NCBI GenBank assembly: GCA_012862495.1
Contig: BLSG01000113.1
Location: 66,865 to 86,864, forward strand
Direction of reading: 5' to 3'
DNA from: Thraustochytrium aureum
Lineage: Eukaryota
DNA: 20,000 nucleotides
Shown here piece by piece: positions 2,651 through 19,689 of this stretch; the first letter of the stretch is position 1; each line of letters starts with the position of its first letter. The translations under genes and the position numbers were made by a program. The notes under the pieces were generated by a model. It did not search any database, had not been told where the DNA came from, and saw nothing but the letters and a program-made list of their open reading frames with translations.

Positions 2651-2651
2651 G

Positions 2652-2690
<39 letters not shown>
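2651..2690 (+). repeat. (GCAG)10 tetranucleotide microsatellite upstream of the thiolase
   Basis: Ten perfect GCAG units ending 61 nt before the ATG. Confidence 0.95.
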
Positions 2691-2751: not shown

Positions 2752-4077
2752 ATGAGCGGCAAGGCCATGCGCAAGGGGCTCTCGACGGCGGCCGCGGCCG
2801 TCAAGGCCGCGCCGGCCAAGCGGATCGCGTTCGTTGACGGCGCGCGCATCCCGTTCACGATGGCTGGCACGACGTACAAGGACAAGATTTCGTATGATAT
2901 CGCCCGGCTCGCGGCCAAGGGCATCGTGGACAGGACTGCTATCGACGCGAAGGAGATCGACTACGTGGCGTGGGGCACGGTCGTCCAGGAGGTGCGCACG
3001 AACAACATCGCGCGCGAGGTCACGCTTGGCGCGGGGCTGCCCAACAGCATCCCCTCGCACACCGTCGGGCAGGCCTGCATCTCATCCAACCAGGCCATGT
3101 GCGGCGGCGCCGAGAAGATTCTGGCCGGCCAGGCCAACGTTGTTCTCGTCGGCGGCTCGGAGACCTTTAGCGACGTGCCGATCCGCTTCAGCAAGCCCGT
3201 GCGCCAGCGCCTGCTTGGCGCTGGCAAGGCGATGAAGAAGGGCCCCGCGGGCGTGCTCAAGCTGCTCAAGGGACTCAAGCTCAAGGACTTGGCCCCAGAG
3301 CCCCCCGCCATCAAGAACTTTAGCACCGGCGAAGTCATGGGCCACTCGAGCGACCGCCTTTCATCGCGCTTTGGCGTGACCCGCGAGGAGCAAGACCAGT
3401 TCGCGTTGGCGTCGCACCACAACGCAGCCAAGGCGCACGAGAAGGGGTTGTACAAGGGCGAGATCATCCCCGTCAACGGTTCGGTGGAGGAGAACTGCAT
3501 TCGTGGCGACACGACCATCGAGAAGCTCTCCACCCTCAAGCCGGCGTTTGTCAAGCCGCACGGCAGCCACACTGCCGGCAACTCCTCGCCGCTCACGGAC
3601 GGCGCGTCAGCTGCGCTCATCATGTCGGAGGACAAGGCCAAGGAGCTCGGCTTTGCGCCAAAGTCTTTCCTCAAGTCGTGGAACTTTGTCTCTGTGGACC
3701 CTTTCGAGGAGATGCTGCTGGGCCCAGCATACGGCATCGCCAAGGTGCTCCGGGACAACGGCCTCACGCTCAACGACATTGACGTTTTCGAGATCCACGA
3801 GGCCTTCGCCGGCCAGGTGCTCTCCAACCTGGCCGCGCTTGACTCTGATGAGTGGTGCAAGGCCAACGTCGGCATGGACCGCATCGGCCGCGTGCCGGCG
3901 GAGAAGCTCAACCAGTGGGGCGGATCTCTCGCGATCGGGCACCCCTTCGGCGCTACCGGGGTGCGCCTTGTGACCACTGCGACCTCGCGCCTTCACCACG
4001 AGGACGGCAGGTTTGCGCTGCTCGCGGCTTGTGCTGACGGTGGCCAGGCGCACGCCAGCCTCATCGAGCGTGCTTAG
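2752..4077 (+). CDS. HADHB: 3-ketoacyl-CoA thiolase, mitochondrial trifunctional enzyme beta-subunit type (441 aa)
   Basis: Thiolase motifs: VDGARIPF, NIARE, catalytic Cys in VGQACISSNQA, TAGNSSPLTDGASA, HEAF (TFE-type variant of NEAF), GGSLAIGHPFGATG, CADGG. The basic, Ala-rich N-terminus MSGKAMRKGLSTAAAAVKAAPAKR resembles a mitochondrial presequence. First ATG in frame is 2752. Confidence 0.92.
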   Translation: MSGKAMRKGLSTAAAAVKAAPAKRIAFVDGARIPFTMAGTTYKDKISYDIARLAAKGIVDRTAIDAKEIDYVAWGTVVQEVRTNNIAREVTLGAGLPNSIPSHTVGQACISSNQAMCGGAEKILAGQANVVLVGGSETFSDVPIRFSKPVRQRLLGAGKAMKKGPAGVLKLLKGLKLKDLAPEPPAIKNFSTGEVMGHSSDRLSSRFGVTREEQDQFALASHHNAAKAHEKGLYKGEIIPVNGSVEENCIRGDTTIEKLSTLKPAFVKPHGSHTAGNSSPLTDGASAALIMSEDKAKELGFAPKSFLKSWNFVSVDPFEEMLLGPAYGIAKVLRDNGLTLNDIDVFEIHEAFAGQVLSNLAALDSDEWCKANVGMDRIGRVPAEKLNQWGGSLAIGHPFGATGVRLVTTATSRLHHEDGRFALLAACADGGQAHASLIERA

Positions 4078-4387: not shown

Positions 4388-5679
4388 ATGGAGGGCGTTG
4401 TGAGGCGGTTTTCGGATGCCCTGCGGGAATCTGTGGACGACGTAGCGCGCGCCGTTCTCGCCCCAGCCCGTGGCTCGGGGCCGACCGGGCAAGATAGCCG
4501 TGAGCGGTTGAGCGCGCTCACTGCGCGTCTCGAGGAGGCCGAGGAGGGCGCAGAGTTTTGCTCGCGGATGTATGCGAGGTCGCACGTTTCCCTCCAAGAG
4601 CTTGTCCGCCTTGCTGCCGCTGCAGAGCGCGCGGACCGAGCCCTCGTGGAGGCGGTAGCCCTGGCCAATGGAGAAAGCTACGAGACGAGCTCTAGGCGCT
4701 ATTCGCCGCCTTCGTGCCCCGAGGAGGACGTGCCAACGGCCCAGGAGCCACACCACGGCGCCAGCTGTGCGCACCTCGGAGATGCACAAACGCCGGCTCG
4801 AGAGCGCTCGAGTGGCGCTCCCAGCACGCAGCACGATGAGCTCGATACTGCGTCGGTGGACAGCGACCCACGGACGCCGACCTTGGAGGACTTTNNNNNN
4901 NNNNNNNNNNNNNNNNNNNNNNNNNNNNNNNNNNNNNNNNNNNNNNNNNNNNNNNNNNNNNNNNNNNNNNNNNNNNNNNNNNNNNNNNNNNNNNNNNNNN
5001 NNNNNNNNNNNNNNNNNNNNNNNNNNNNNNNNNNNNNNNNNNNNNNNNNNNNNNNNNNNNNNNNNNNNNNNNNNNNNNNNNNNNNNNNNNNNNNNNNNNN
5101 NNNNNNNNNNNNNNNNNNNNNNNNNNNNNNNNNNNNNNNNNNNNNNNNNNNNNNNNNNNNNNNNNNNNNNNNNNNNNNNNNGAGGACTTTGGGCTTTCGG
5201 TATCAAAGTACTGTGACCCCGCGCAAGAGCCATCACTTGGTGACAGCCCTCCACCGCGTGTGTCACAGCAAGGCGTTCGGCGCGCGACGCGCGACGCGCC
5301 GCATTTTTTTGCGGCCTCACCGCCCCCAGCGTCGGGCGCAGAGGCTGGGGCTCGTGGCCGCGGCCTTGGTTCAGCCAGCCCAGACTTGGCATGCGCTGGG
5401 GCCGTTGACACGATCGAGCTTAACCTCGTCACCGACGCAGAGTTCGAAGGCCTGCCCGCGTATTTGAGGGGCCAAGTCAGCACGGACAGCCTGAATGAAG
5501 TGTACCAAGCAGTGACGGTTGTGGCGTGCGAGAACCGCGACTTGGCGTTTTCGATGGACCAGGTCGAGGCTCTTGGCCGCCCTGGCGGCTCCGCGATCAA
5601 AGCGACGCTGCTCTGTCTGATTCAACTTGGCAAGCTGGAGGCCGTCGGCTCTGGCAGGTATCACCTCGTGGTGGCTTGA
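4388..5679 (+). CDS. SKA3: Spindle and kinetochore-associated (Ska complex) protein, SKA3-like; spans the gap, ~331 aa if the gap is closed
   Basis: Helical/coiled-coil N-terminus (MEGVVRRFSDALRESVDDVARAVL...), then PRTPTLEDFGLS, which resembles the SKA3 P-x-L-x-DFGL motif. A disordered Pro/Ser linker leads to a Ska-type C-terminal winged-helix-like segment (VTDAEFEGLPAYLRGQVSTDSLNEVY...KATLLCLIQLGKL). Both gap flanks read EDF in frame. Confidence 0.7.
4895..5181. other. assembly gap, probably spurious (flanks overlap by GAGGACTTT)
   Basis: 4886-4894 and 5182-5190 are both gaggacttt. Confidence 0.85.
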
Positions 5680-5706
5680 CCCTCTCCAGATGCAGGCACG
5701 GGAATA

Positions 5707-5866
5707 GCGGCGTTCTGGGCTAGCGGCATCCCCACGCGGCGGCGTTCTGGGCTAGCGGCGTCCCCACGCGGCGGAGTTCTGGGCTAGCGGAATCCCCACC
5801 GGGCGGCGTTCTGGGCTAGCGGAACCCCACTCGGGCGGCGTTCTGGGCTAGCGGAACCCCCACTCG
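5707..5866. repeat. minisatellite, 5 x 32 bp (consensus GCGGCGTTCTGGGCTAGCGG + ~AATCCCCACGCG)
   Basis: Units start at 5707, 5739, 5771, 5803 and 5835. Confidence 0.95.
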
Positions 5867-5959
5867 GCGCCGTACGGCGTCTCCATGTACTCTCAATGGA
5901 AAGAGTATAGCAGTGTTGTCAAAATCTGAATCTATCGTCTATGTCACGTGAGCTGCCGA

Positions 5960-6949
5960 CTACTGATCGGGGAAGCTGAAGATCTGGTACTGGTCCGCTT
6001 TGCGGTGCTGATAGTCTTCCGTGCGCTTGCCGTTCTTCTTGATAAAGTTGCCGGTCGCGCACCAGCCAAAGGTCTTGCCGTCCTTCTCAATTGTGGCAAA
6101 GCTCTCGTCAAGCGGCTGCAAGTCGCGGTAGCTCGAGGCTTTCGGGTCGTACTCGTTCTTGACAACCTCCTTCCTGCGCACGCAGACGTTCCAGTACGGC
6201 ACCTTGTCCTGCGAGCGGTGGCACTTGAGGGTGAGCTGCACTCCGCCCATCTCTACAATCCCGTTCACCTTCTGGTCCCCCGCGCAAACGGAAACCTCGT
6301 TGACCTTTTGCGGCGCGTTCAGGAGAACGCCTTCGACATCCACGTAGCGGCCAAGGGGGAAGCCCTCGGAGGCCTCGTCGAAGAGCGGGTCGCCGTCCGT
6401 GGGAACGACATATCTGGCTCGAGTCTCCGGGTTGAAGTCGCTCTCCTCCGTGCACATGTCCTTCGCCATGTACTCGGCAACGTCGTAGTCTGTCGGGCTG
6501 ACGGACTCGGTGGCAGCTTGGCCGCACGCTTGGCTGCTGCTCTCCTTGCGCAGGTACACACGGATGCCCGCGATAAACTCGCACGAGTCCAGGATGAACT
6601 CGGTCGCAAACTCGTTCAAGAAAGAGTACATGATCCGGTCATCGCGCACCGGGTTTCTTCGGGACCAGGAAGCTCTTGGTGCTGGAACCCATCTTGGACT
6701 CGAAGTCAAAGATGTGCGGGTCGCCGTACGCGGCACACTCGGCTCGGCAGGCTTTTTTGCCGTTGATCGGCTGGTCCATGGGCCGGTTGCAGTTGTAGTC
6801 GACCTTGTCCTCAGGGACGGGCGGGGCAAACCCAAAGCTCCCTGGGTTTGTGCAGACGCCATAGTCCTCCTTAAAGAACAGGGTGGAGTCTTGCCAGAAC
6901 GAGCCCGGAATAAACTCGGCAACCTTGCACACCGTGTCGCGCACGTCGA
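5960..6949 (-). CDS. Secreted Cys-rich GDPH/VWD-like protein, paralog 1. 5' part is hidden in the gap; one frameshift (sequencing error or pseudogene)
   Basis: DVRDTVC...KACRAECAAYGDPHIFDF...VPKKP reads in one frame. PVRDDRIMYSF...TFGWCATGNF...FPDQ* reads in another. One extra base sits at ~6649-6653. Colinear with the paralogs at 8632-10227 and 15656-17291. Confidence 0.85.
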   Translation of the reverse strand, partial: STCATRCARLPSLFRARSGKTPPCSLRRTMASAQTQGALGLPRPSLRTRSTTTATGPWTSRSTAKKPAEPSVPRTATRTSLTSSPRWVPAPRASWSRRNPVRDDRIMYSFLNEFATEFILDSCEFIAGIRVYLRKESSSQACGQAATESVSPTDYDVAEYMAKDMCTEESDFNPETRARYVVPTDGDPLFDEASEGFPLGRYVDVEGVLLNAPQKVNEVSVCAGDQKVNGIVEMGGVQLTLKCHRSQDKVPYWNVCVRRKEVVKNEYDPKASSYRDLQPLDESFATIEKDGKTFGWCATGNFIKKNGKRTEDYQHRKADQYQIFSFPDQ

Positions 6950-7628
6950 NNNNNNNNNNNNNNNNNNNNNNNNNNNNNNNNNNNNNNNNNNNNNNNNNNN
7001 NNNNNNNNNNNNNNNNNNNNNNNNNNNNNNNNNNNNNNNNNNNNNNNNNNNNNNNNNNNNNNNNNNNNNNNNNNNNNNNNNNNNNNNNNNNNNNNNNNNN
7101 NNNNNNNNNNNNNNNNNNNNNNNNNNNNNNNNNNNNNNNNNNNNNNNNNNNNNNNNNNNNNNNNNNNNNNNNNNNNNNNNNNNNNNNNNNNNNNNNNNNN
7201 NNNNNNNNNNNNNNNNNNNNNNNNNNNNNNNNNNNNNNNNNNNNNNNNNNNNNNNNNNNNNNNNNNNNNNNNNNNNNNNNNNNNNNNNNNNNNNNNNNNN
7301 NNNNNNNNNNNNNNNNNNNNNNNNNNNNNNNNNNNNNNNNNNNNNNNNNNNNNNNNNNNNNNNNNNNNNNNNNNNNNNNNNNNNNNNNNNNNNNNNNNNN
7401 NNNNNNNNNNNNNNNNNNNNNNNNNNNNNNNNNNNNNNNNNNNNNNNNNNNNNNNNNNNNNNNNNNNNNNNNNNNNNNNNNNNNNNNNNNNNNNNNNNNN
7501 NNNNNNNNNNNNNNNNNNNNNNNNNNNNNNNNNNNNNNNNNNNNNNNNNNNNNNNNNNNNNNNNNNNNNNNNNNNNNNNNNNNNNNNNNNNNNNNNNNNN
7601 NNNNNNNNNNNNNNNNNNNNNNNNNNNN
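6950..7628. other. assembly gap, expected to contain the 5' ~590 nt of paralog 1
   Basis: 679 N; the equivalent segment of paralog 2 (ATG to DVRD) is ~590 nt. Confidence 0.85.
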
Positions 7629-8631
7629 CCGAAGCGCCGGTTTCTTGAACAAAATCGAGAAGAATTCAGCATCGATCCGTTACACCTTCGTCTGGAGTTG
7701 TGTTTGGCTGAATTGTTTCGAGCGCCCTCGGCAGACCTGGCCAGAGGGCTGCACTGCTGAATTGGGCTCGCATTGCGCGGCATCGCGCGCTGCCAAAACC
7801 GACGTGCCAGGGCCTTGGTTCGTTTCGGAGCGCTGGTCGTGGCGGTTCTGAACACTGTGCCCCCTCCGAGGTCATCCGAGGCGACTCGCGGGTGCGCCCC
7901 GCTCCGACGGCCGCATGTTTTTTGGTAGTGAATCATGTTTGAATGTGCGGCGCGTTGTGTGATTCGGCGATGCCGCGCACGTGTCTGGTTCTCTAACCGC
8001 AAGAAACTGGCTGGAGGAGCGCGTCCCCCGCGACGCTGTGGCACCTTTGTATTCTTGAGGTCGTTCGGTTTTGTTCGGGGTGGCGCACAGTGTTCCGAAT
8101 TCGGCATCTCTGAACTTGTCGAGAAAGTCGGCCTGGAGGCCGAGCTCGTCGACCAAGTCAAGCTTATATTTAGAATAAACTGAACGGCAACTCTGATCGG
8201 CAACTTTGAGACGTAGCAAGATAGCGGCTTGCGCAGCACGGCGGATGGGCAAGGGTTCAGCCGCTGGCCCACAACGTTGCCACAGAACGAACATGCAAGC
8301 ACACTTGCTGGCGTTGGAGTTTTTTGGGAAGTCTGTGCAGCCTCGTCATCGCGCAACTCGAACCGAGCAGGCCTCTCGGCGCGCAACTGTCCAGATCAGC
8401 GAAGCGGAGACGACGCTGAATCTGAAATCCCAAGTGCAGGATGGCAAGCAGGGTTTTGGGTGTGTTTTGCCCTCTGACGTCCGATGTCGGCCTTGGCCAG
8501 CATCCGTTTGGGGCGAGCCCGCACGGCATCACAAACGTTGTACTAAAACGAGCTGGTAGAGAGAAGATTGTTTGATGTTGTTCAGCCCGCGTCGCGCATG
8601 GATGACAACCCGCTCGGCGATGCTTGCGCCT

Positions 8632-10227
8632 CTAGGCCTGCTCATCCGGGAAAACAAACTTTTGCGCCTCGCCGCGGTTGCGGTAGACAAACTTGCTCTG
8701 GACCTTGCCGCGGCGCCCGGCGTAGTTGCCGGTCGCGCACCAACCAGAGGTCTTGCCGTCCTTCTCGATGCTGCTAAAGGTCGTGGTGAGCGGCTCGAGG
8801 TCCGAGTAGGTCGACGCACCTGAGCTGTAAGCGTTCTCCACGACTTCCTTCCTGCGCACGCAGACGTTAAAGTACGGAACCTTGGAGCGAGTGCGGTGGC
8901 ACTTGAGCGTGAGCTGCACGCCGCCCATTTCAACGACCCCATCGATCTCCTGCAGCGTGCCAGCGCAAGACGAGACGCTGCTGACCTTGCTCGGCGCGTT
9001 CACGAGGTTGCCGTTCACTTTGACAAAGCGGCCGAGCGAGTAGCCCTGTGAGCCAACATCGTAGCTGGCATCGCCTTCACTGGGGACTGTGATGCGCTTC
9101 CGCGTGGCAGGGTTAAAGTCGGACTCTTCGACGCAATAGTCCTTGGCCATGTACTCCTCGATGTCGTAGTCTGTCGGGGAGACAGATGCAGTGTCGGCGG
9201 CAGCACATGCAGTTCCGGTGTTGTCCTTCTTTTGCCACACACGGACGCCTGCGATGAGCTCGCACGTGTCGAGGAGCATCTCGACGGCGAACTCGTTCAT
9301 GAACGAGTACAGAACGGTCTCGTCGCGCGAAGGCTTCTTGGGGACCGTAAAGTCCGCATTCTTGCCGTGGTACGAGTCGTACGGGTAAATGTGGGGGTCC
9401 CCGTACGCGGCGCACTCGGCCCTGCACGCCTTCTTGCCGTCGAGGGGCCTGTCCACCTCGCGGTTGCAGTTGTACTTGGGCTCGCCGCCCGAACCGACTT
9501 CCTCCGAGTTGGGAACACCAAATTTGTTGGGGTCGGTGCAGACGCCATAGTCGCTCTTGAACACGGGGGTGCTATCTTTCCACCAGGTGTCCGTGCTGGC
9601 GCTCGGGAGGGTCGGGGAGCAGTCATCGCGAACGTCGATGGTAACGCTAAGGTGCATCGTCGAGTGCTTGAAGCGGCAGTACGCGTTCCATTCAACCTCC
9701 GCATCAGTGTCGCCGCTGCGCTTGGTTCCGTCGGCATACAGCGGGATGACGTCGCCGCGCGAGGGCAGCGACCTGCGCGAAGACCCGCAGTCCTTCTCAG
9801 CGTCCATGGCCAGCTTGCCGTTGACAAAGAGGCGCATCAGCCAGACGCGGCCGTTTTTGGGGATGACGGCTGCTTCGATCTTGACGTTCTGGTCGTCGAG
9901 AGCCCACATAGTGTAGTTTCCCTCCTGGCTCATGGTGGACGCAGGGCATTTGCTGAAGAATGGCGCGCAGTGCGGATCGCCCCAGCAGTTGCACCTCGAA
10001 CGGCACTGGCACCGCTCAGACTGCTTGGTCGAGGCATCCTCGCACTCGCGGTCCTCCGTAAGCCTCGACTCCTCGAGTTTGCACGACCCTGTGTTGACGA
10101 TCGGCGCTTCGAGTGCGGTGTTCATGCGGGTGGCGATCATGGCACGCAGGCCCGAGCTGCTCGCCTCGACGGTCTGCGCGGCGGCGGCAACGACAGCCGC
10201 CAGCGTGAGCGCGCGCATGGCAACCAT
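8632..10227 (-). CDS. Secreted Cys-rich protein with two VWD-like GDPH repeats, paralog 2 (complete, 531 aa)
   Basis: Signal peptide MVAMRALTLAAVVAAAAQTVEA; 22 Cys. Repeat 1 is CNCWGDPHC...DYGVC and repeat 2 is CAAYGDPHIY...TSGWC, resembling the VWD start (C-x-x-x-GDPH) and end (T-x-GLC). No TM or GPI tail seen. Strong GC3 bias. Confidence 0.9.
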   Translation of the reverse strand: MVAMRALTLAAVVAAAAQTVEASSSGLRAMIATRMNTALEAPIVNTGSCKLEESRLTEDRECEDASTKQSERCQCRSRCNCWGDPHCAPFFSKCPASTMSQEGNYTMWALDDQNVKIEAAVIPKNGRVWLMRLFVNGKLAMDAEKDCGSSRRSLPSRGDVIPLYADGTKRSGDTDAEVEWNAYCRFKHSTMHLSVTIDVRDDCSPTLPSASTDTWWKDSTPVFKSDYGVCTDPNKFGVPNSEEVGSGGEPKYNCNREVDRPLDGKKACRAECAAYGDPHIYPYDSYHGKNADFTVPKKPSRDETVLYSFMNEFAVEMLLDTCELIAGVRVWQKKDNTGTACAAADTASVSPTDYDIEEYMAKDYCVEESDFNPATRKRITVPSEGDASYDVGSQGYSLGRFVKVNGNLVNAPSKVSSVSSCAGTLQEIDGVVEMGGVQLTLKCHRTRSKVPYFNVCVRRKEVVENAYSSGASTYSDLEPLTTTFSSIEKDGKTSGWCATGNYAGRRGKVQSKFVYRNRGEAQKFVFPDEQA

Positions 10228-10268
10228 CTTGTCGTACTTGCTGGTCTACGTTCTTTCTTTCCTTGCTG

Positions 10269-10288
10269 TTGCGTTCGGGGTTTGCCGC
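10269..10288 (-). promoter_or_regulatory. conserved upstream motif GCGGCAAACCCCGAACGCAA (paralog 2)
   Basis: 19/20 identical to 15581-15600 upstream of paralog 3; 41 nt before the ATG. Confidence 0.6.
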
Positions 10289-12368
10289 TCATCGTCAAGT
10301 GGCAGGCAGTTGCTCGGGCCCAGGACGCCTTCCTTGGCCTTGGCCTTGGCGTCGATTCAGTGAGAGAGGGGCATGGTGCTCGCACCCAACCATTGCGAAA
10401 CGGGACGTGAACGCAGAAAGGAGGCGCAGCCCAAGCCGAACCGCCGGCGGTCGTTAAAAAAACGTCCAGGCGACTGTGATAGGTTGATTTTCTTCTTTTT
10501 CAATCGAACTCGCGCTGGCACTCTCTCTGCATGCCCAGCTCGAGAGTACTCGTTCGTACGCGTTTCCCTCGAACCTCTGAATCTAATCTGAACTGCTGAC
10601 GGCCGGTCCTGTTCTGCGGTTGTGAATTCGGGCCAAACTTTTGTTGATGTTGTGCAGACGTTGTGCAAACGCTCAACGGAAACGTGTTCACTCAGAGCTG
10701 GCCAATCTGAATTCCTTCCGAATTCTGCTGTGCTGACTCGCCATCAGAATTCATGCCAGTTGAGAGCCACTTCTCTTCGCCTTGCTGCCGGTAGCCGCAA
10801 CCGTCCCACCGCCAATTTGCGTCAACGGCGTGGTCAAATTGACACCCCCTGCTCCCCACTGCCACGGGAACTGCGAATCCGTCTCACTTTTCAGTCCCGA
10901 GCACGGCGCTGCACCGAACGCCCACTACCCAGTCAGCAGGCGCGGGGAGTTTCATCTGCTGAACAAGGCCCCGACGCGGCCTGGAGGAGGAAGCCAGCCT
11001 ATCCCAGGGCCTCCTCAACCCCGGAGAGAGCAGCGACTTTACACATGCCTCAAGCTCTAGCTCTAGCTAGAGAGGCCGTTGAGATTGCAAAGGAATGAAT
11101 CGCGCCTCCCATGCGAACGCGCTGAAGCATCTGCAGCGGCGACCAGCCGCCCTTCGGTACATTTGCGAGACGCGGCGCCAACCAAGGTGAGTGAGCTTGA
11201 GAGCTTGAGAGCTAATGCGCACGAGGCTCAAGCACAACATGGTAGAGCAAGCAAGAGTACCCGGCAGCGTACTGAGCAAGGCCTCGCTAGGGCAGGGACC
11301 TCCGCACAGCGCTGACATTGTCTTGAGATTGGGTTCGCTTGTAGCAGCGACGTTGACTCAGATCCGCCGTTACTAAACAGCGTCATACGGCTCACTGTGC
11401 TCCGAGCCGACCGCCACCACCAAGCCGTCGAGTTTTCGGCGTGCGCGGCAAAGTGCACGGTCGTGCGGGACATTGTTCAGGCGCGTGCGTCGAGCGCCGA
11501 CTAGTCCGGAAGCTCGTTGGGACAGTTGCAACTGCGGAGACAAGCGCGACGCAACGACGTCGGTCAGCCGTTCGAGGCCAAACTGCGCGCAGCCTCGTGG
11601 CGTCCGAGGCGGTTCAATCAGCAACCCGCCCCGTCGAATGCTCGCTCGCTCGTGGATAACTCGTCGATGCTCGAAGATGGCCGGCCGACTGTCGGTACCA
11701 ACCAATCACAGAAGATCACTTGCTGCGCCCGAAACCCATCAAAAACATCCATCGGAGTTTCATCACAAAGTGAACACATGGGCGAGTCGCGTCCAAGCGC
11801 AAGGCGGCAAGGCGAACGCCACAGCTCGGTCATGTGCCCCACACGATCACCCAGTCATTTTTTGAAAATGAATGCTCCTGAGGCAGCCTGCGACGGGACA
11901 TCTCTGTGCATGACCAAAACCGCGTGCTGATGAGCCGCAACGCACGAACCGGAATCACATTCAGATTCAGAACAGAAGCGTGGAATTGGCAAGGAGCCTG
12001 ACAACTGGTGGCCGACACAAAGGTGTTGGCGTTCGCCCACGGACACGGATCGAATCATCGCACCAAGCAACCTCCTGACGAAGAAAATTGAAGCAAGCTG
12101 GACGAAGGCCTGCGAGCCCCAGCCGCCAGTGGCCTCGATCACAAAGCCGTAAGTAAGCTCTTGCCGGAGAGCAACACGTCAGCGGCCCGGAGGACAGCCC
12201 AAAATACCCCAAATGCGAACAGTGAACGGCTTCTTTGAAGAGCATTCATTAATTCATTCTGACATGAGAAGCGCACGGTAACCCGACCCCAGAAAATAGA
12301 CGAGTACAATAGCCCTCGGTCTATCTTCACACACTCTGTACCTCCTGCACCTCACTTGCACTTGTAGT

Positions 12369-12447
12369 NNNNNNNNNNNNNNNNNNNNNNNNNNNNNNNN
12401 NNNNNNNNNNNNNNNNNNNNNNNNNNNNNNNNNNNNNNNNNNNNNNN
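12369..12447. other. assembly gap (N run)
   Basis: 79 N. Confidence 1.
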
Positions 12448-12806
12448 CCCCTCACAATATATTTGGCTTCAGCAGGGCATAATTTGTCCTTACCGAGAAG
12501 GAGATTTAAAAAAGTTTTTTTAAATTAATTAAAATAAAAATACAAAAGTACTTCCGCTGACAAATGAGGGAAATCAGATGAGAGAGACATGTTTGGTAGG
12601 CTTACATCTAGGGTGCCCCGCTCTCTGACTTCACCTAGGAGTAAAGAATGAAAAGTATCTTTTGTTCTTTGTTTGGGGGCAATAAATTTGCTTTCCGCCG
12701 CCCTACGGGAAACTTGGTATGGTACGAGTACTCGTAGAGAAAGTACTGTCAGTGTTGCAGTTTTGAGCCTGAGCAACATGAGCCAACGGAAGGTGTCCAC
12801 AGAGTG
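12448..12806. other. AT-rich island with palindromes (possible non-autonomous element or regulatory region)
   Basis: Visibly AT-rich compared with the surroundings. Hairpin ATTTAAAAAA-gt-TTTTTTAAAT at 12504-12525; perfect 14-bp palindrome TACGAGTACTCGTA at 12723-12736. Confidence 0.45.
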
Positions 12807-13231
12807 ATGAAGCGACTGGGTGTCATGGAGAGTCGGCCAGTCAGCCAGCCAGTCAGTGGGCTCGTGACAACGGCAAACGACAGACGGCTCGCATCATGGC
12901 GCCGAGCTGTTTGCGTTTCAGCGGTTGTTGTGCAACTCCTCGGTGCAACTGTGCAACTGCCAGCAACATGCCAAGATGAACATCATGGACAGCCTGCCTG
13001 CGATGAGTGAGCGAACGAGGGAGGGAGGGCGGGTTTCATCCTGCATGCAGTGAACTGCATGCCATCGCGTGGCTCGCAGCCTGCGGGTGACGTTGGCCGA
13101 AATGTACAAGACTCGGGTGCCAACATCAAGTCGGCAAGTCGGATTGGCACGCGTTGTGAGCGTCAGGTAATTGCTCGAGGTTGGCTCATTTGGCGCATAA
13201 TCTCTTCGCCTCGCAGCCGCGTTGTGCCAAC

Positions 13232-13244
13232 GAGCGGCAGACCC
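13232..13244 (+). promoter_or_regulatory. GAGCGGCAGACCC motif upstream of the Hcp-like gene
   Basis: GCGGCAGACCC (13234-13244) is identical to the first 11 nt of the paralog 3 upstream motif, in the same orientation, 100 nt before the ATG. Confidence 0.45.
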
Positions 13245-13344
13245 GCAACTTGAGCTACTACCCGGCTGCGCACATCGAAAGCCAGGACAGAGTCGGCTGT
13301 TGTCAGGCAAGGCAGGGCGTGTATTGCGGCGAGACCGGACAAGG

Positions 13345-13935
13345 ATGCGGGTTCGCAGTGCGATCAGCGCTTTGATTGGAGGCTTTCTTGCGGCCAGCGC
13401 GGAGGGCTTCGCGGAGGTCCCTATCCTGAGCATCTTTCTGACCACTTCGCCAGGATCTACGCCAGGACCAGCGCTGGAGGGCAACTCGCGACACCCGCAC
13501 TTCACGAAAGCGGTCGAGCTGCTCTCCTTCGATCTGGACGTAACAACGAAGGCGGCTTATGGCTCCGGCCGGCTAACCACGGGCAAGACCGCTTTCAAGG
13601 ACTTTTGCTTCTCGCATTACGCCAACTCGCCGGCTGCTGGAAAGTTTTTCCAGCTAACTCTGTCGAGTGTGCCGATGAGGGATTTGACCATCTCATACGT
13701 AGCCACGGGGTCCAACAGCGGCACCGTGCAATGGAAGGTTGAGTTCACGGACGTCATCTTCACCAAGAGCGAGATCATCAGCTCGTTCAATGGGGACTTC
13801 AAGCAAGACGTGTGCTTCACTGCAAGGCTCGTCAACTACTACGTCCCTGGCTCCAGCTTCAACGCCCAAACAGACTACCCGGCTGTCTCGTCCGTCGCTG
13901 TTGGGTACGACCTTATGCGCGCTTTAATGCTGTAG
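13345..13935 (+). CDS. Hcp/TssD-like (type VI secretion tube / phage tail-tube fold) protein with N-terminal signal peptide (196 aa)
   Basis: Colinear by eye with the Hcp1 consensus across its length: IFL...LEGNSRHPHFTKAVELLSFDLDV (~I-x-GES-x-D-x-x-H-x-x-x-IEVLSFSWGV), GSGRLTTGKTAFKDFCFSHY (~GGG-x-GK-x-x-F-x-DL-x-FTKY), KFFQ (~PKLFQ), KVEFTDVIF (~I-x-L-x-DVII), QDVCF (~E-x-VSL), VAVGYDL (~V-x-x-GWDL). Preceded by the hydrophobic leader MRVRSAISALIGGFLAASAEG. Confidence 0.78.
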   Translation: MRVRSAISALIGGFLAASAEGFAEVPILSIFLTTSPGSTPGPALEGNSRHPHFTKAVELLSFDLDVTTKAAYGSGRLTTGKTAFKDFCFSHYANSPAAGKFFQLTLSSVPMRDLTISYVATGSNSGTVQWKVEFTDVIFTKSEIISSFNGDFKQDVCFTARLVNYYVPGSSFNAQTDYPAVSSVAVGYDLMRALML

Positions 13936-15580
13936 AGGTTGGGTTGGCGGAGCTCGTCAAGCTTCATGATTGCTGAGAAACGGCCCAAACAGATTTTCCA
14001 CAGATTTTCCTCATTGCGAAAGTTGAGTGCGAGAGCTCGCAAACGACCTGCGCCATCATCGGCGCGTGCCTTGCGAAATCGGGCGCGAGTTGGCTTGTCT
14101 CGTGGGGTGGGTTGGTCTGAGAACCAGCGTCAGGGCCATCTGCCTGCTCGTCGAGCCCGCGGTTTCCCGCTATTGCACGTAAGCGTGCAAGGCGCCCAAA
14201 AGCCCAGGCGACAGGGCTTGACCGCAGCCTGAGACAGGGGGTCAGAAGCCGCGTGCTGAAGAACCGCCTGGCCAGTCCTCTTGGAGCCGTCTGGATGGCC
14301 AAGAGCCTGACAACAAGCGGCCTTCCGATGTTGACGCGAAAGTTCCGTGGCAGACTTGTGGACGATCGATCGCCCACGGATCGGATATGCTCCACCAAGC
14401 CACCCTTTGATAGACAAAGATAGCCAGGCTGCGATCCCAAGCCACCAAGCTTGTCTCCGCCACGTGGTTTGGATGCTTCCCTCAAGGCGAGACGGGCACA
14501 ACTGGAAGAAACGGCGCTGCCCAACCCAAGAAGGTTAGGCAGCACCACAGGGTCGAGGACCCAGCTCAAGATTCAGCGCCATCGTGCGGGCAACTCAAAA
14601 GCAGACGTCCGCCCAAACTCTGTGGCCTCCGCTTTGGCAAGCGGCACTGTCGGGTCGACGGCTCCGCCGTTCCTGCGTTAGCTGCTCCGGGTGCGGACCC
14701 TGCTGTCACCAACCCTGTTCGCGCGAGTTCGGCGGGTCGCGCTGCGGCGCTTCACAAAGCTGCAACGAGGAGCAAGCATGGGGCTATCTATCGTGACGTG
14801 TCGTCAAAGCCTTCCTGCATTTCGCGATTCAAGCCGCTGGCGGTTTGGGCTCGCTCGCCAGCGGCTCGCGCCTTCGCAAGCTCTGCGAAAAACGTGCCCC
14901 AAGTTGCCTGGGCCAACTAGCTAGTGGAGGTACTGATCCGCAGGTGGTCTCCAGCGACTTGCTCGAGTCCGAGTAGAGTCCTACAACTGCAACTGGTGTA
15001 TGCCTCAACAGAACACCATTTCGCTCAACTCCCGGAGGTCGCGGCGCCGTACCGGTAACCAGCAGCAAGAAAGCAGCGCGCTCCATTCCACTTGTCGCTG
15101 TCGTGTCGCTGTTCTGCCATAGATGATCGATCAGCTGATGGGTCGGCCATCGAGACGCTCGAGCTCCGAAGCGCCACCAGCTGAACTGCCATCTGCCAAA
15201 CTGAGCCCAACGCCTTCCCGAACGATCGGAGCAGCGTACACGTCCGCCCCTCTCTGGCACCGACGCGCTTGGGGGCTTCGTGCGAGTATCTCCATGATAC
15301 CGGCAAGCGCATGAAGCGCAATGACGTGCTCCATCGGCGCGCATATCGTCCGGCCGCTGCGGCGGATCCACTGCGGAGGTGCGGTGGAGTTTCGTGGGGC
15401 GTTTCACGGTCGGCGGGCGCTCTCTTCGATAGTCAGCAGGGGGTAGGCCCCTTGTCTGGCTGGGACAGCGCAAGCCAAAGTCAGCGACGAAGAGAAGCGC
15501 AGGCGAGTTAGTGGTGGCTGGCGCTTGGTCTCTTCATGCTGTAGGTGGCTGCTGGAGCGCGAGGCAGTCCTGGCGATCAG

Positions 15581-15600
15581 GCGGCAGACCCCGAACGCAA
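15581..15600 (+). promoter_or_regulatory. conserved upstream motif GCGGCAGACCCCGAACGCAA (paralog 3)
   Basis: 19/20 identical to the reverse complement of 10269-10288; 55 nt before the ATG. Confidence 0.6.
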
Positions 15601-15655
15601 GACTGCATTCGGCAGGAAGACCGGGCACCTGACGAGGAGCAAATTTTCTGACAAG

Positions 15656-17291
15656 ATGGTTCGCTTGGCGGCGCTTGCCACTGTCGTGGTGGTTGCTGCG
15701 GCCGTGCAACATGGTAACGCAGAGGCTGGAAGTCTGCGGAGTATGCTGAACGAACGCCTGCAGGGCAAGCTCGAGGTGATCGCGAACAAGGGGAGGTGCA
15801 AGCCTGAAGAGTCGCGGGCGACTGAGGACCGCGAGTGCGAGGACCCGCTCAACAAGGCCGACGAGGCGTGCCAGTGCCGCGTGCGCTGCAACTGCTGGGG
15901 CGACCCGCACTGCTCGCCCTTCTTCACGGAGTGTCCTGCCTCGACGATGCACACNNNNNNNNNNNNNNNNNNNNNNNNNNNNNNNNNNNNNNNNNNNNNN
16001 NNNNNNNNNNNNNNNNNNNNNNNNNNNNNNNNNNNNNNNNNNNNNNNNNNNNNNNNNNNNNNNNNNNNNNNNNNNNNNNNNNNNNNNNNNNNNNNNNNNN
16101 NNNNNNNNNNNNNNNNNNNNNNNNNNNNNNNNNNNNNNNNNNNNNNNNNNNNNNNNNNNNNNNNNNNNNNNNNNNNNNNNNNNNNNNNNNNNNNNNNNNN
16201 NNNNNNNNNNNNNNNNNNNNNNNNNNNNNNNNNNNNNNNNNNNNNNNNNNNNNNNNNNNNNNNNNNNNNNNNNNNNNNNNNNNNNNNNNNNNNNNNNNNN
16301 NNTTGACGTGCGCGACACGGTGTGCGCTGTCCCCAACTACAACGCCGAGACGTTCTGGCAGGACTCCACCTTGTTCTTCAAGGACGACTATGGTGTCTGC
16401 ACCAACCCGGGCGGCTACGGGTTCGTCCCCCCCGTCCCGGAAGACAAGGTCATCTACAACTGCAACCGGCCCATGGACCAGCCGATCAACGGCAAGAAGG
16501 CGTGCCGTGCCGAGTGCGCTGCTTACGGCGACCCGCACATCTACGATTTTGAGTCCAAGATGGGCACCACCAAGAAGGACTTTACGATCCCGAAGAAGCC
16601 CGTTCGCAACGACCGCATCATGTACTCGTTCTTCAACGAGTTCGCGACCGAGCTGATCCTGGACTCGTGCGATTTTATTGCGGGCGTTCGCTTGTACCTC
16701 CGCAAGGCGAGCAGCAACCAGGTGTGCGGGCAGACCGCTGCAGAGACGGTTTCCCCCGCCGACTATGAGGTGCTCACCTACTTGGCCGCCGACAAGTGCA
16801 CCGAGGAGAAAGACTTTGACCCGAAGACGCGGGCCCGGTATGTGGTTCCCACCGACGGCGACCCGAACTTTGACCCGGTTGCGGAGGGCTTTCCGCTCGG
16901 CCGCTACGTGGACGTCGACGGCACGGTGATCAACGCGCCGCCCACGGTCAGCGGCGTGTCTTCGTGCTCTGGCGGGAGCAAAGTGAACGGGATCATGGAG
17001 ATGGGCGGCGTCCAGCTCACGCTCAAGTGCCACCGCACCGTCGACAAGGTCCCGTACTGGAACGTCTGCGTGCGCAGGAAGGAGGTCGTCAAGACCGAGT
17101 TTGACCCGAAAGCCAAGAGCTTCCGCGACCTCCAGCCACTTAATGATGACTTTGCCACGATTGAGAAGGACGGCAAGACCTTTGGCTGGTGCGCGACCGG
17201 CAACTTTATCAAGAAGAACGGCAAGCGCACCGAGGACTTTCAGTTCCGTCGCGTGGGCCAGTACCACGTGTTCCAGTTCTTCGATGCGTAA
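15656..17291 (+). CDS. Secreted Cys-rich GDPH/VWD-like protein, paralog 3 (spans gap 15955-16302)
   Basis: ATG in gacaagATGGTT, the same context as paralog 2. Signal peptide MVRLAALATVVVVAAAVQHGNAEA and CNCWGDPHC lie before the gap. After the gap: DVRDTVC...CAAYGDPHIYDF...TFGWCATGNF...FFDA*. Confidence 0.9.
15955..16302. other. assembly gap inside paralog 3
   Basis: 348 N; the equivalent region in paralog 2 is ~295 nt. Confidence 1.
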
Positions 17292-17540
17292 ACAAACCAT
17301 GTTCGGCGGCGGCGCGATTCTGGGCGTCAAGTGTTTGTTGGCAAGAAGGAGGAGCAGAGTCTGAGAAACATAACAATCACCCATTTTCTTGCACAATCCG
17401 AATGCCCTGGCTGCGAGTTGCTCGCCTGAGCTTGCTTTCAAGAAAAAAGTTCAGCGGGCCAGCCTGAGAAAATCGTTTGTGAACGTTTTCCTCGCGTGCG
17501 AGCGGAGCGGTGCGGGGATGGAAGAAAAGAATCAGTCACT

Positions 17541-19689
17541 TCAAGCGCCGCTAGACCCCTTCTTGCGCACAATTGCACCAGGACGCAATGAGCGCCGCTT
17601 GGAATCCTGCTTGAGGCGGCTGCGCGTCTCGTCGAGGTACGCCCGCAGCGCCTCTTTGACCTGGGCAACAGGAATCGACTTTGAGCAAATGGTGAACGAC
17701 ACGCCCTTGTCCTTGATGATATACCCGATGCCAACGCCGTCGAGCGAGACGGGGCCAAAGCCAAACAGTTTGAGCGCCGGGTTGCCGCAGTTGGAGGTGG
17801 AGAGCACCGTCTCAGACAGCTTGGCGTAGCCCGGGCTCGAGTAGAGCAGCGGAAGCGCCACGTCCGCTCCGTTGGCGCGCCGCCACGCGCACTTGAGCGC
17901 GTACAGGTGGCGGTCCACGCCCAGCCCATCGCTAGCGCGCGCCGTCATCGCCGAGTGGGCCTTGGCGGCCGCGCGAAGCGCGGACACGGCCTCTTCGGCG
18001 GCAACCGGCTCCGGGCCGTTGACCAAGTCCACGTACGCCTTCGCTTCCTTGGTGACAGAGCGGCCCGCCTCCGTGCGCCCTTGCAAGAATCGCTTGGTCA
18101 TGACGCTCTCGTACGTGTTGGCGACCTCGCCAGTGACCTTGAACACGCTCGCCATCATGCACTGCTGCACAAACGCGTCGGGAGAAAGCTTGTGTGACAC
18201 GATGAATTTCTTGCCGTACCCAGTGTACTCGAGGCTGTCCACCTCGTAGGCAGCCACCATGTCTTGCAGGTGCGCGTGCGCCTCGCGGATCCCTTGCCGG
18301 ATCGATTCGTCCAGCTCCAGCTCGATCTTGCGAGGCCCGCTCTCGCCCTTGCCGTGCGAAGGCGAGGACGACTCTGCTGCCGACCCGGCGCGCGCGTAGC
18401 GCACGCTCTGCAGGTGGTTGCGAACCGCTCCCTTGCCGCTGATGGCCTGGGCGAACCGAATGATTGTGTCGGTGAACACGTCGCTCACAACGCGGAGCAC
18501 GGTGTGCCCGTCAGCCGGGGTGTGCTCAAAGTTGACCGAGGCGGACCCATTCTCCGAAACAATGATCTCTAGCTTGTCGTACCACCGCGACATGCAGGTC
18601 CCGACCTCAACCCCGTCCTCGGTGAGGCGGGTCGTGCCGCGCAGCGCATTTGCGGCCGCTTCGGTCACCGACTCGGGGCTCGAGCCAATGTCCAGGCACA
18701 GGACGAAGATGGCCTCGTCGATCACGGCTAGCTCTGCTGCGTTGCCCTCGCTCAGGCCGGCGATCTCGTTGCGATACTTGGCCCAGGTGGTCCTGCGTTC
18801 AGACGTGAGCACGCCGAACGCGTCCGCCGCGCACGTGGCGTCGTCCACGTCAAGCGCGTCGTCCTTGATCGCCTCCAGGTTTGCTGTGATCTCGTCCAGA
18901 GAGACCAGCAGCGACCCGTCCTCTGCGACCACGTCGAAAGTGTAAAACTGGTTGCGACAGACCACGACGATGTGGCGCGCGTCGTGCTTGGTCACGATCG
19001 AGTCGCTGCCGGGGGCCCGCGGCCGTGCGGGATGCGCGCGCTGCCCACCACCTTGGTGAACTGCGACATGCAGAGCGGCGTTTTGCGGACCATGTCTACG
19101 GACAGCGTCTCGCTTCGCACGGCGTGGACAAACTTGCACATCGACAGAACCAGCGCGCTGGCCCGGGCGACCTGGTCGTTCCGCCCAGGCGTTGGGTCGT
19201 CCTCCAGCACAAAGTACGGGTTGACGTTGATCGTCACCGGGTCGTCCATCAGCAGGTAGGCGTCATCCCAGAACGCGTCCACATAGTTGTCTTTGTCGGC
19301 GCTGTAGGCCTGCAGCTCCGCCTGCATCGCGCGGCCCGCCTCGCCGCGAAGCTCGAGACGGCTTCGCGGGTCTCCTGCAGCTCCTCCTCGGTCAGCAGCG
19401 GTGCCACTGTCTCGAGAAACCTGTCGCAGGTATCCTCCAGCTCGGGAATCGGCAGATGTGGCAACTCGTTCTGAAACCTGAACGTCCCTGTAGCTTTCCT
19501 CTCCTCGGGCTCGCTCACCGCCGGCTCGAACTTGACGCTCTTCGTCTTGGACGCCGCCGCCGCCGCCGCCGCCGCCGAGCTCCGCACATTCTCCGCCGCG
19601 CCGGCCTGCGGCGCCTTCCTCAGCACCTCCTCTTTGAGCCTTTCCCTTCGAGCGGCGCGACCGCCGCTCGACGACTTGGCGTTGCCCAT
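17541..19689 (-). CDS. Choline/carnitine O-acyltransferase, resembling fungal YAT1-type carnitine acetyltransferase; two apparent frameshifts (~19345, ~19018)
   Basis: Three consecutive frames give LPHLPIPELEDTCDRFL; then FWDDAYL...INVNPYFVLEDDPTP...PLCMSQF...ARIP; then HIVVVCRNQFY...LTSERR...FVLCLD...RWYDKL...FEHTPADG (catalytic HxxxD)...SPDAFVQ...TYESVMTKRFLQGRTE...GVDRHLYAL...LSTSNCGNPALKLFGFGPV. Confidence 0.9.
19553..19576. repeat. (GCC)8 encoding poly-Ala in the acyltransferase N-terminus
   Basis: Read directly; translates as SSAAAAAAAASK. Confidence 0.9.

Follow-up and report, generated by a model that had tools for sequence, protein, structure and literature searches.

The gene cluster

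The window analysed here, a 20,000-nucleotide stretch of the Thraustochytrium aureum genome (assembly GCA_012862495.1, contig BLSG01000113.1, positions 66,865 to 86,864), is eukaryotic and intron-poor and holds a cluster of four genes: paralogs 1 and 2 of a double-VWD protein family on the reverse strand, and an Hcp-like gene together with paralog 3 of the same family on the forward strand. In bacteria, Hcp makes up the inner tube of an injection machine (type VI secretion), and the cluster likely reflects the turning of such a weapon part into a component of an outer coat. All four genes lie where the original prediction had put them, and in the same orientations. The centre between the two pairs (10228-13344), which had been taken as non-coding, indeed contains no convincing gene, nor do the other spacers, with 0 of 12 open frames above the Pfam cut-off and no match in Rfam.

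Identity of the Hcp-like gene

Judged from its sequence, 13345-13935 on the forward strand encodes an intact, full-length Hcp homologue: the intronless gene specifies 196 amino acids, with a hydrophobic leader (about residues 1-21) followed by a full-length Hcp domain. The protein (P0001) scores 26.9 bits against Pfam T6SS_HCP (PF05638, cut-off 23.5) and matches PDB entry 3v4h (E 1e-5), which is described as an Hcp (PMC4650826); all 30 of its 30 Atlas matches carry PF05638 (score 0.92), and a search of NCBIfam gave no match. Against a profile of 39 bacterial Hcp sequences it reaches 33.4 bits, compared with a maximum of 4.8 for 1000 shuffles and 0.7 for the reversed sequence, and hhalign aligns it with bacterial Hcp at 96% over 158 columns (93% over 141 columns with the similarity-fetched loci excluded). 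The alignment spans the first strand through the terminal GYDL strand, with the strands in order. Ring stacking of Burkholderia Hcp1 is reported to depend on an extended loop (PMC4650826), and the span of this stacking loop in the Hcp-like protein is 17, against a median of 19 in the 39 bacterial rows. The Hcp identity that had been proposed from the letters alone is therefore borne out, both by a Pfam score over the cut-off and by a profile alignment over the full domain. A single-sequence structural model of the protein had a pLDDT of 29.7.

Signal peptides had been predicted at the three visible N-termini of the cluster, and by hydropathy, the sole measure used, hydrophobic leaders are present at all three (best 11-mer at residue 7: 2.1, 2.4, 2.8). 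In the Hcp-like protein the hydrophobic segment covers residues 7-17 and no further membrane segment follows it. As to a leader borrowed from a VWD gene, 5 of 363 ATG windows score equally high, one of them being paralog 2 and two the 5' end of the thiolase gene.

The Hcp-like protein is strongly diverged, with an identity of about 20%, and at most 21%, to any bacterial Hcp collected. In a quick tree of 65 Hcp rows its branch is the longest (3.13), no donor is resolved, and no supported set includes it. Searches of four prokaryote samples gave matches in 9 of 401, 3 of 301, 0 of 251 and 0 of 251 genomes; inspection of these 12 identified four as Hcp (L086, L089, L091 and L095) and the others as chance. 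Phages yielded no Hcp relative and plasmids one chance match.

Residence, variation and expression

The scaffold carries five N gaps in the window, including 679 N at 6950-7628, 79 N at 12369-12447 and 348 N at 15955-16302, as well as some indel errors, the latter evident because apparent frameshifts in the carnitine acyltransferase gene at 19015, 19357 and 19695 are missing from contigs of run X4 (and the one at 19357 also from X12). The 79-N gap splits the left pair (paralogs 1 and 2) from the right pair (the Hcp-like gene and paralog 3), and the N-free segment 12448-15954 holds both the Hcp-like gene and the start of paralog 3. Such an assembly, together with a ratio of non-synonymous to synonymous variation (pN/pS) of about 1 in the Hcp-like gene and the lack of a listed contig that spans this gene and paralog 3 in one piece, would suit the view that the gene is either a bacterial fragment misjoined in a low-coverage assembly or a transferred gene in the course of decay. 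We consider this very improbable, given that runs of three studies hold the gene, with variants and an open frame, and that it shows a hint of an A-tail, a eukaryote-like start context and the upstream element shared with its neighbours. The low identity to the bacterial Hcp collected and the long end branch likewise argue against a recent bacterial piece. The GC content at third codon positions is 0.73 in the Hcp-like gene, and ranges from 0.70 to 0.87 among the genes of the window. The gene thus looks resident and alive.

The contig comparison covered runs X1 to X4, X7, X9, X10 and X12; X9 and X10 are probably a single data set, X2 and X4 come from one study, X2 is RNA by guess, and a gene left uncovered in a run is no evidence of its absence. 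X2 contigs cover paralog 2 (8561-10146), the Hcp-like gene (13345-13659 and 13716-14010) and paralog 3 (15661-17308), with no cover of paralog 1, and X4 contigs cover the same three genes along with the thiolase and the acyltransferase. A contig of X9/X10 lies over 13392-13611 with 10 differences, and these runs hold further parts of the window. In X3 and X7 the contigs cover paralog 2 alone; X12 has cover on paralogs 2 and 3 and none on the Hcp-like gene. A further Hcp-like contig in X1 shows differences in its leader region and 3' untranslated region (UTR), and there may be more than one Hcp-like allele or copy.

One X2 contig ends in eight As at 14010, a place at which the window lacks an A run, so that this end is non-templated and 13936-14010 (forward strand) is the probable 3' UTR of the Hcp-like gene. 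The contigs inform on neither the level nor the strand of a transcript, and contig cover and the A-tail hint that the gene is expressed, though not that it is co-expressed with its neighbours. What stands of the co-expression suggested earlier is that transcript-like contigs for the Hcp-like gene and paralogs 2 and 3 co-occur in one study.

In the X2 variant of the Hcp-like gene the coding part, as far as listed, contains 0 gaps, all listed indels falling 3' of the stop codon. The variant differs from the window by 12 residue-changing and 4 silent codons (21 of 23 differences listed), and paralog 2 compared with X4 likewise shows 12 changed and 4 silent codons among the listed rows. The thiolase has 0 changed and 5 silent codons (Hcp-like gene versus thiolase, Fisher p 0.006). 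This protein variation in the Hcp-like gene and paralog 2 is what would be expected of surface proteins whose selection is either diversifying or relaxed.

The double-VWD paralogs

Paralog 2 (8632-10227, reverse strand) is complete and encodes 531 amino acids with a hydrophobic leader, 22 Cys and the motif GDPH at residues 83-86 and 276-279. Paralog 3 (15656-17291, forward strand; about 518 amino acids) contains the 348-N gap, which is spanned by 270 letters in contigs of X1, X2 and X4. Of paralog 1 the 3' part is visible (5960-6949, reverse strand; 75-80% identical to paralog 3), the 5' part presumably lying in the gap at 6950-7628; its one-base frameshift near 6657 is probably an assembly error, since the X9/X10 contig lacks it. 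Protein identity among the three is 53-80%, and they form one group in the tree (support 100), which identifies them, at the sequence level, as a local expansion.

A full HMMER search with the paralog family returned 30 clusters at E up to 0.001 and 27-38% identity, from the MMETSP, EukProt, JGI and Logan sets, one of them labelled with taxid 1112570 (Thraustochytrium sp. LLF1b) and a distant one (E 6e-4) labelled Durusdinium. Both C-x-x-x-GDPH motifs are present in 19 of 28 aligned family rows, most of the others being fragments; G276 and P278 are invariant and D277 is conserved at 90% or more. The family has no name in the libraries searched. In Pfam it does not reach the VWD cut-off (PF00094; no match for paralog 2, and 1 of 28 rows at E 0.022), 10 of 28 rows match RGM_C weakly, and there is no match to C8 or TIL, from the C8-TIL-E modules that follow VWD in gel-forming mucins and VWF. 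Sequence searches of the PDB with the VWD proteins gave chance matches or none, viral contigs yielded no member of the family, and viral structures gave nothing convincing. One member (464 amino acids; L084:190-3936) lies on a gene-dense contig of 39.7% GC with a small unknown gene and a PhyH-like dioxygenase as neighbours, a layout that gives the impression, and only that, of giant-virus DNA.

The assignment as GDPH/VWD-like proteins, made in the original prediction, is supported by structure prediction. An alignment-based model of paralog 2 (pLDDT 78.5) matches VWD domains of MUC2, MUC5AC, MUC5B, VWF, RGMB and FCGBP (Z 7.4-10.3, against 3.1 at most for unrelated folds), so that the paralogs have, by this model, a VWD fold (Z about 10). 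The first VWD domain is the better tied by the match ranges; the second rests on its motif and on a match to Cypridina luciferase. Mucins, FCGBP and RGM cleave themselves at the Asp-Pro bond of GDPH, and mucins and FCGBP also become cross-linked there.

Shared upstream sequences

A 20-nt element lies upstream of paralog 2 (10269-10288, reverse strand, starting 61 nt before the ATG) and, with 19 of 20 positions identical, upstream of paralog 3 (15581-15600, forward strand, starting 75 nt before the ATG). When 36,654 positions are searched with the element, the best remaining match is a third copy upstream of the Hcp-like gene, on its coding strand (13234-13253, forward strand; 15 of 20 identical, 11 of them consecutive; 111 nt ahead of the ATG), and the exact 11-mer occurs at these three sites only. 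The chance of falling within 200 nt of the Hcp-like start is about 0.5%, and about 3% if any of five other visible starts is allowed. In X3 and X7, contigs end at 10268 and 10266, just inside the 3' edge of the paralog 2 element, a very weak hint that the element lies at the transcription start.

Further upstream, a diverged non-coding repeat of about 180 nt occurs in the same orientation some 1.4 kb before the Hcp-like gene (11912-12086, forward strand) and some 1.4 kb before paralog 3 (14241-14418, forward strand), with a score of 97 against a background mean of 59 and maximum of 85. The offset of this pair (2309-2337) is nearly equal to that of the elements (2347), which suggests that the Hcp-like gene sits in a duplicated upstream cassette of a VWD gene. 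Sequence near these repeats is multi-copy in the runs. Within the repeat copy before the Hcp-like gene, 11920-11949 itself resembles the upstream element of paralog 2 (73% over 30 nt) and is possibly a decayed further promoter copy. An inverted pair at 12107-12147 and 14805-14882 (74% over 39 nt), which in several runs shows high depth and numerous loose ends, is probably a dispersed repeat family. A joint in X10 between 11906 and 14248 (side 31, depth above local) was considered as a loss of the Hcp unit and rejected, a dispersed repeat being more likely.

The start contexts, previously described as similar, are so: GACAAG(G)ATG is found at 3 of 373 ATGs, namely the three visible starts. CAAG-ATG also precedes the homologue in an outside locus (L083), and this similarity is therefore weak evidence.

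Flanking genes

To the left of the cluster lie a WD40 gene and a thiolase (2752-4077), both identified by Pfam, and, as the immediate neighbour, an SKA-like gene (4388-5679) with a weak Pfam SKA1 match (E 1.8e-4) under the cut-off; the carnitine acyltransferase (Pfam) frames the cluster on the right from 17541. Among the runs overlaid, no contig links the SKA-like gene with the acyltransferase. A tandem array of units of about 32 nt (5700-5873), variable in run X1, lies between the SKA-like gene and paralog 1, and microsatellites with a GCAG unit occur in 5' regions both in the window (2651-2690) and in L083 upstream of 8015.

A proposed coat function for the cluster

What is established is the Hcp homology, the hydrophobic leaders, the shared upstream element and, for the neighbours, paralogy and a VWD fold. 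The reading that we favour, with slightly better than even confidence, is that an old bacterial Hcp, predicted to be secreted, has been kept and is controlled together with the VWD cluster, and that it forms rings in or on the coat, as a structural or binding part of it, rather than an injection tube. The Hcp gene would have been transferred from bacteria, long enough ago for identity to have fallen to about 20% and for no donor to be traceable. It would then have settled in, or taken over, a duplicated VWD upstream region and so come under the control of the cluster, a step suggested by the two non-coding similarities, which are collinear and offset by about 2.33 kb. The Hcp-like protein would be imported into the endoplasmic reticulum (ER) and secreted, and may form hexameric rings, perhaps stacked, since the stacking loop and the last strand are kept. 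The VWD proteins, if they follow the known chemistry of their relatives, would cleave themselves at GDPH and polymerise or adhere as a mucin-type matrix. Direct binding between Hcp and VWD proteins forms no part of this reading.

A stronger version, that of the original prediction, holds that stacked Hcp rings make extracellular tubes which the GDPH-VWD proteins bind and cross-link, giving a coat, an adhesive or a structure resembling an extrusome. It draws on everything that supports the reading above, and the top structural matches of the VWD model include, by their entry titles, tubule and filament VWD assemblies of MUC2, MUC5AC/B and VWF. The linkage is, however, unseen outside the window, and most members of the VWD family are without a detectable Hcp, so that the VWD proteins seem not to need one; we therefore think this version improbable. 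Equally doubtful is the idea that the Hcp-like protein is built via the ER into extracellular rings or nanotubes which co-assemble with self-cleaving double-VWD proteins as a new coat, adhesive or ectoplasmic-net scaffold. For an extrusome role, as suggested earlier, or an injection role no evidence was found: genes for sheath, spike and baseplate are all missing from the window, and with its leader the protein would be routed via the ER.

Several observations weigh against the favoured reading of a secreted Hcp under cluster control. The upstream element was found after the fact; in whole-region alignments 12 of 670 and 20 of 670 random windows match equally well, the upstream region of the Hcp-like gene scores 21 and 22 with those of the paralogs against 24 with that of the thiolase, and there is no continuous homology across the 1.4 kb upstream (score 17, with shuffles up to 19). 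The pN/pS of about 1 agrees with relaxed selection no less than with diversifying selection. Of the four loci of the VWD family outside the window, L083 (13.6 kb) alone is long enough to be informative, and it has a single VWD gene between a DMAP1-like and an IQ-motif gene and no Hcp, so that the recurrence of Hcp/VWD linkage, raised earlier as a check, was seen in 0 of 1 informative outside loci. No eukaryotic Hcp relative appeared in a set of 5.8 billion searched at near or shorter lengths, nor in pattern scans of viral, metagenome and prokaryote contigs, searches whose reach is low: the same word search recovered 1 of the 30 VWD clusters, and longer Hcp forms fell outside the 5.8-billion search. 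Finally, HilE of Salmonella is described as an Hcp homologue that is monomeric and serves a different purpose (PMC10696396), so such a fate is possible for this fold.

The absence of an Hcp beside the L083 homologue, the wide spread of the VWD family with no detected Hcp, the modest statistics of the element and the HilE precedent would all be compatible with a different account, in which the Hcp is real, expressed and secreted and has landed in a fast-changing island of genes for secreted proteins, where it acts alone, possibly as a HilE-like monomeric beta-barrel binder, the linkage and the element being accidental. We regard this as rather unlikely, as the best third match of the element lies upstream of the Hcp-like gene and on its own strand, and as the Hcp-like protein keeps the stacking loop and the last strand, whereas the loop of HilE is shortened.

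The literature covered contains no report of a eukaryotic Hcp, with most subscription papers and the supplementary tables on horizontal gene transfer in thraustochytrid genomes lying outside its scope, and no report of thraustochytrid VWD proteins, with subscription papers again mostly outside. An Aurantiochytrium protein, A142921, is listed as ‘type VI secretion protein?’ on the basis of a 65%-confidence Phyre2 label with VipA sheath and GCN1-type matches, and is not called Hcp (PMC12221091).

If the favoured reading is true, an intact, apparently transcribed Hcp with a predicted signal peptide would mean that a eukaryote has kept this fold for extracellular work. Labyrinthulomycete proteins of coat and adhesion are little known, and recent proteomic work lists them as open (PMC12221091); the double-VWD family provides concrete candidates for them.

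Comparison with known systems

The paralogs share with the VWD domains of gel-forming mucins, VWF, FCGBP and RGM the fold (Z 9.9-10.3, root-mean-square deviation (rmsd) about 3 Å over 119-137 residues; next unrelated Z 3.1), the Cys-x-x-x-GDPH motif at the start of the domain, (predicted) secretion and richness in Cys. They differ in having two VWD-like domains only within about 520-600 amino acids, in an identity of 10-17%, and in the lack of a PTS stretch: gel-forming mucin and VWF assemblies have a long Pro/Thr/Ser region and chains of several thousand residues, paralog 2 has no such region in its 531 amino acids. Cypridina luciferase is a secreted protein of about 550 amino acids with two VWD-like halves (PMC8859458), and its structure (PDB 24ne) is the sole match across both halves of paralog 2 (235 residues, Z 8.5); the rmsd is 9.4 Å and the identity 12%, and nothing suggests luciferase activity in the paralogs.

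With Hcp/TssD (PF05638; 3v4h) the Hcp-like protein shares the whole domain in order. Among the aligned features are a motif resembling G-E-S, the glycine loop that precedes ‘K..F.DF’, the strand with ‘v.F.DV’ and, at the end, the ‘GYDL’ strand. What differs is the eukaryotic host, the N-terminal hydrophobic leader, the VWD neighbours and the identity of about 20%. The Hcp of type VI systems is cytosolic and without a signal peptide, whereas the Hcp-like protein has its leader at residues 7-17, and no type VI gene (sheath, VgrG/PAAR, spike, baseplate or membrane complex) is present in the window. The locus is not a type VI system, because a cytosolic, leaderless Hcp and type VI partner genes were both looked for and neither was found in the window. 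HilE, a monomeric Hcp homologue with another job (PMC10696396), is alike in having taken up a role outside the injection machine; it is cytosolic and its loop is short, in contrast to the leader and near-normal loop of the Hcp-like protein.

A parallel comes from bacteria themselves. Among 125 distinct bacterial Hcp, drawn from samples of four genome groups and from similarity matches, 24 have a hydrophobic leader, and 0 of these 24 have a sheath, VgrG or ClpV gene within about 1.5 kb, compared with 63 of the 101 others, which argues that exported orphan Hcp exist in bacteria. Leader-bearing examples without type VI neighbours are found in L089 (1171-1974), L117, L152, L114, L116, L150, L160, L171 and L157, some as tandem pairs. 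The Hcp-like protein scores equally well against both classes, with 29.2 bits against a profile of the exported orphans and 30.4 bits against canonical Hcp, so that the profiles do not point to descent from the exported class. The protein of L089 combines a leader, an Hcp domain and a PEP-CTERM-like tail, the Hcp-like protein being without tail or anchor. Like the exported orphans, the Hcp-like protein has a leader before the Hcp domain and no type VI neighbours, and it thus parallels an uncharacterised bacterial class of exported Hcp.

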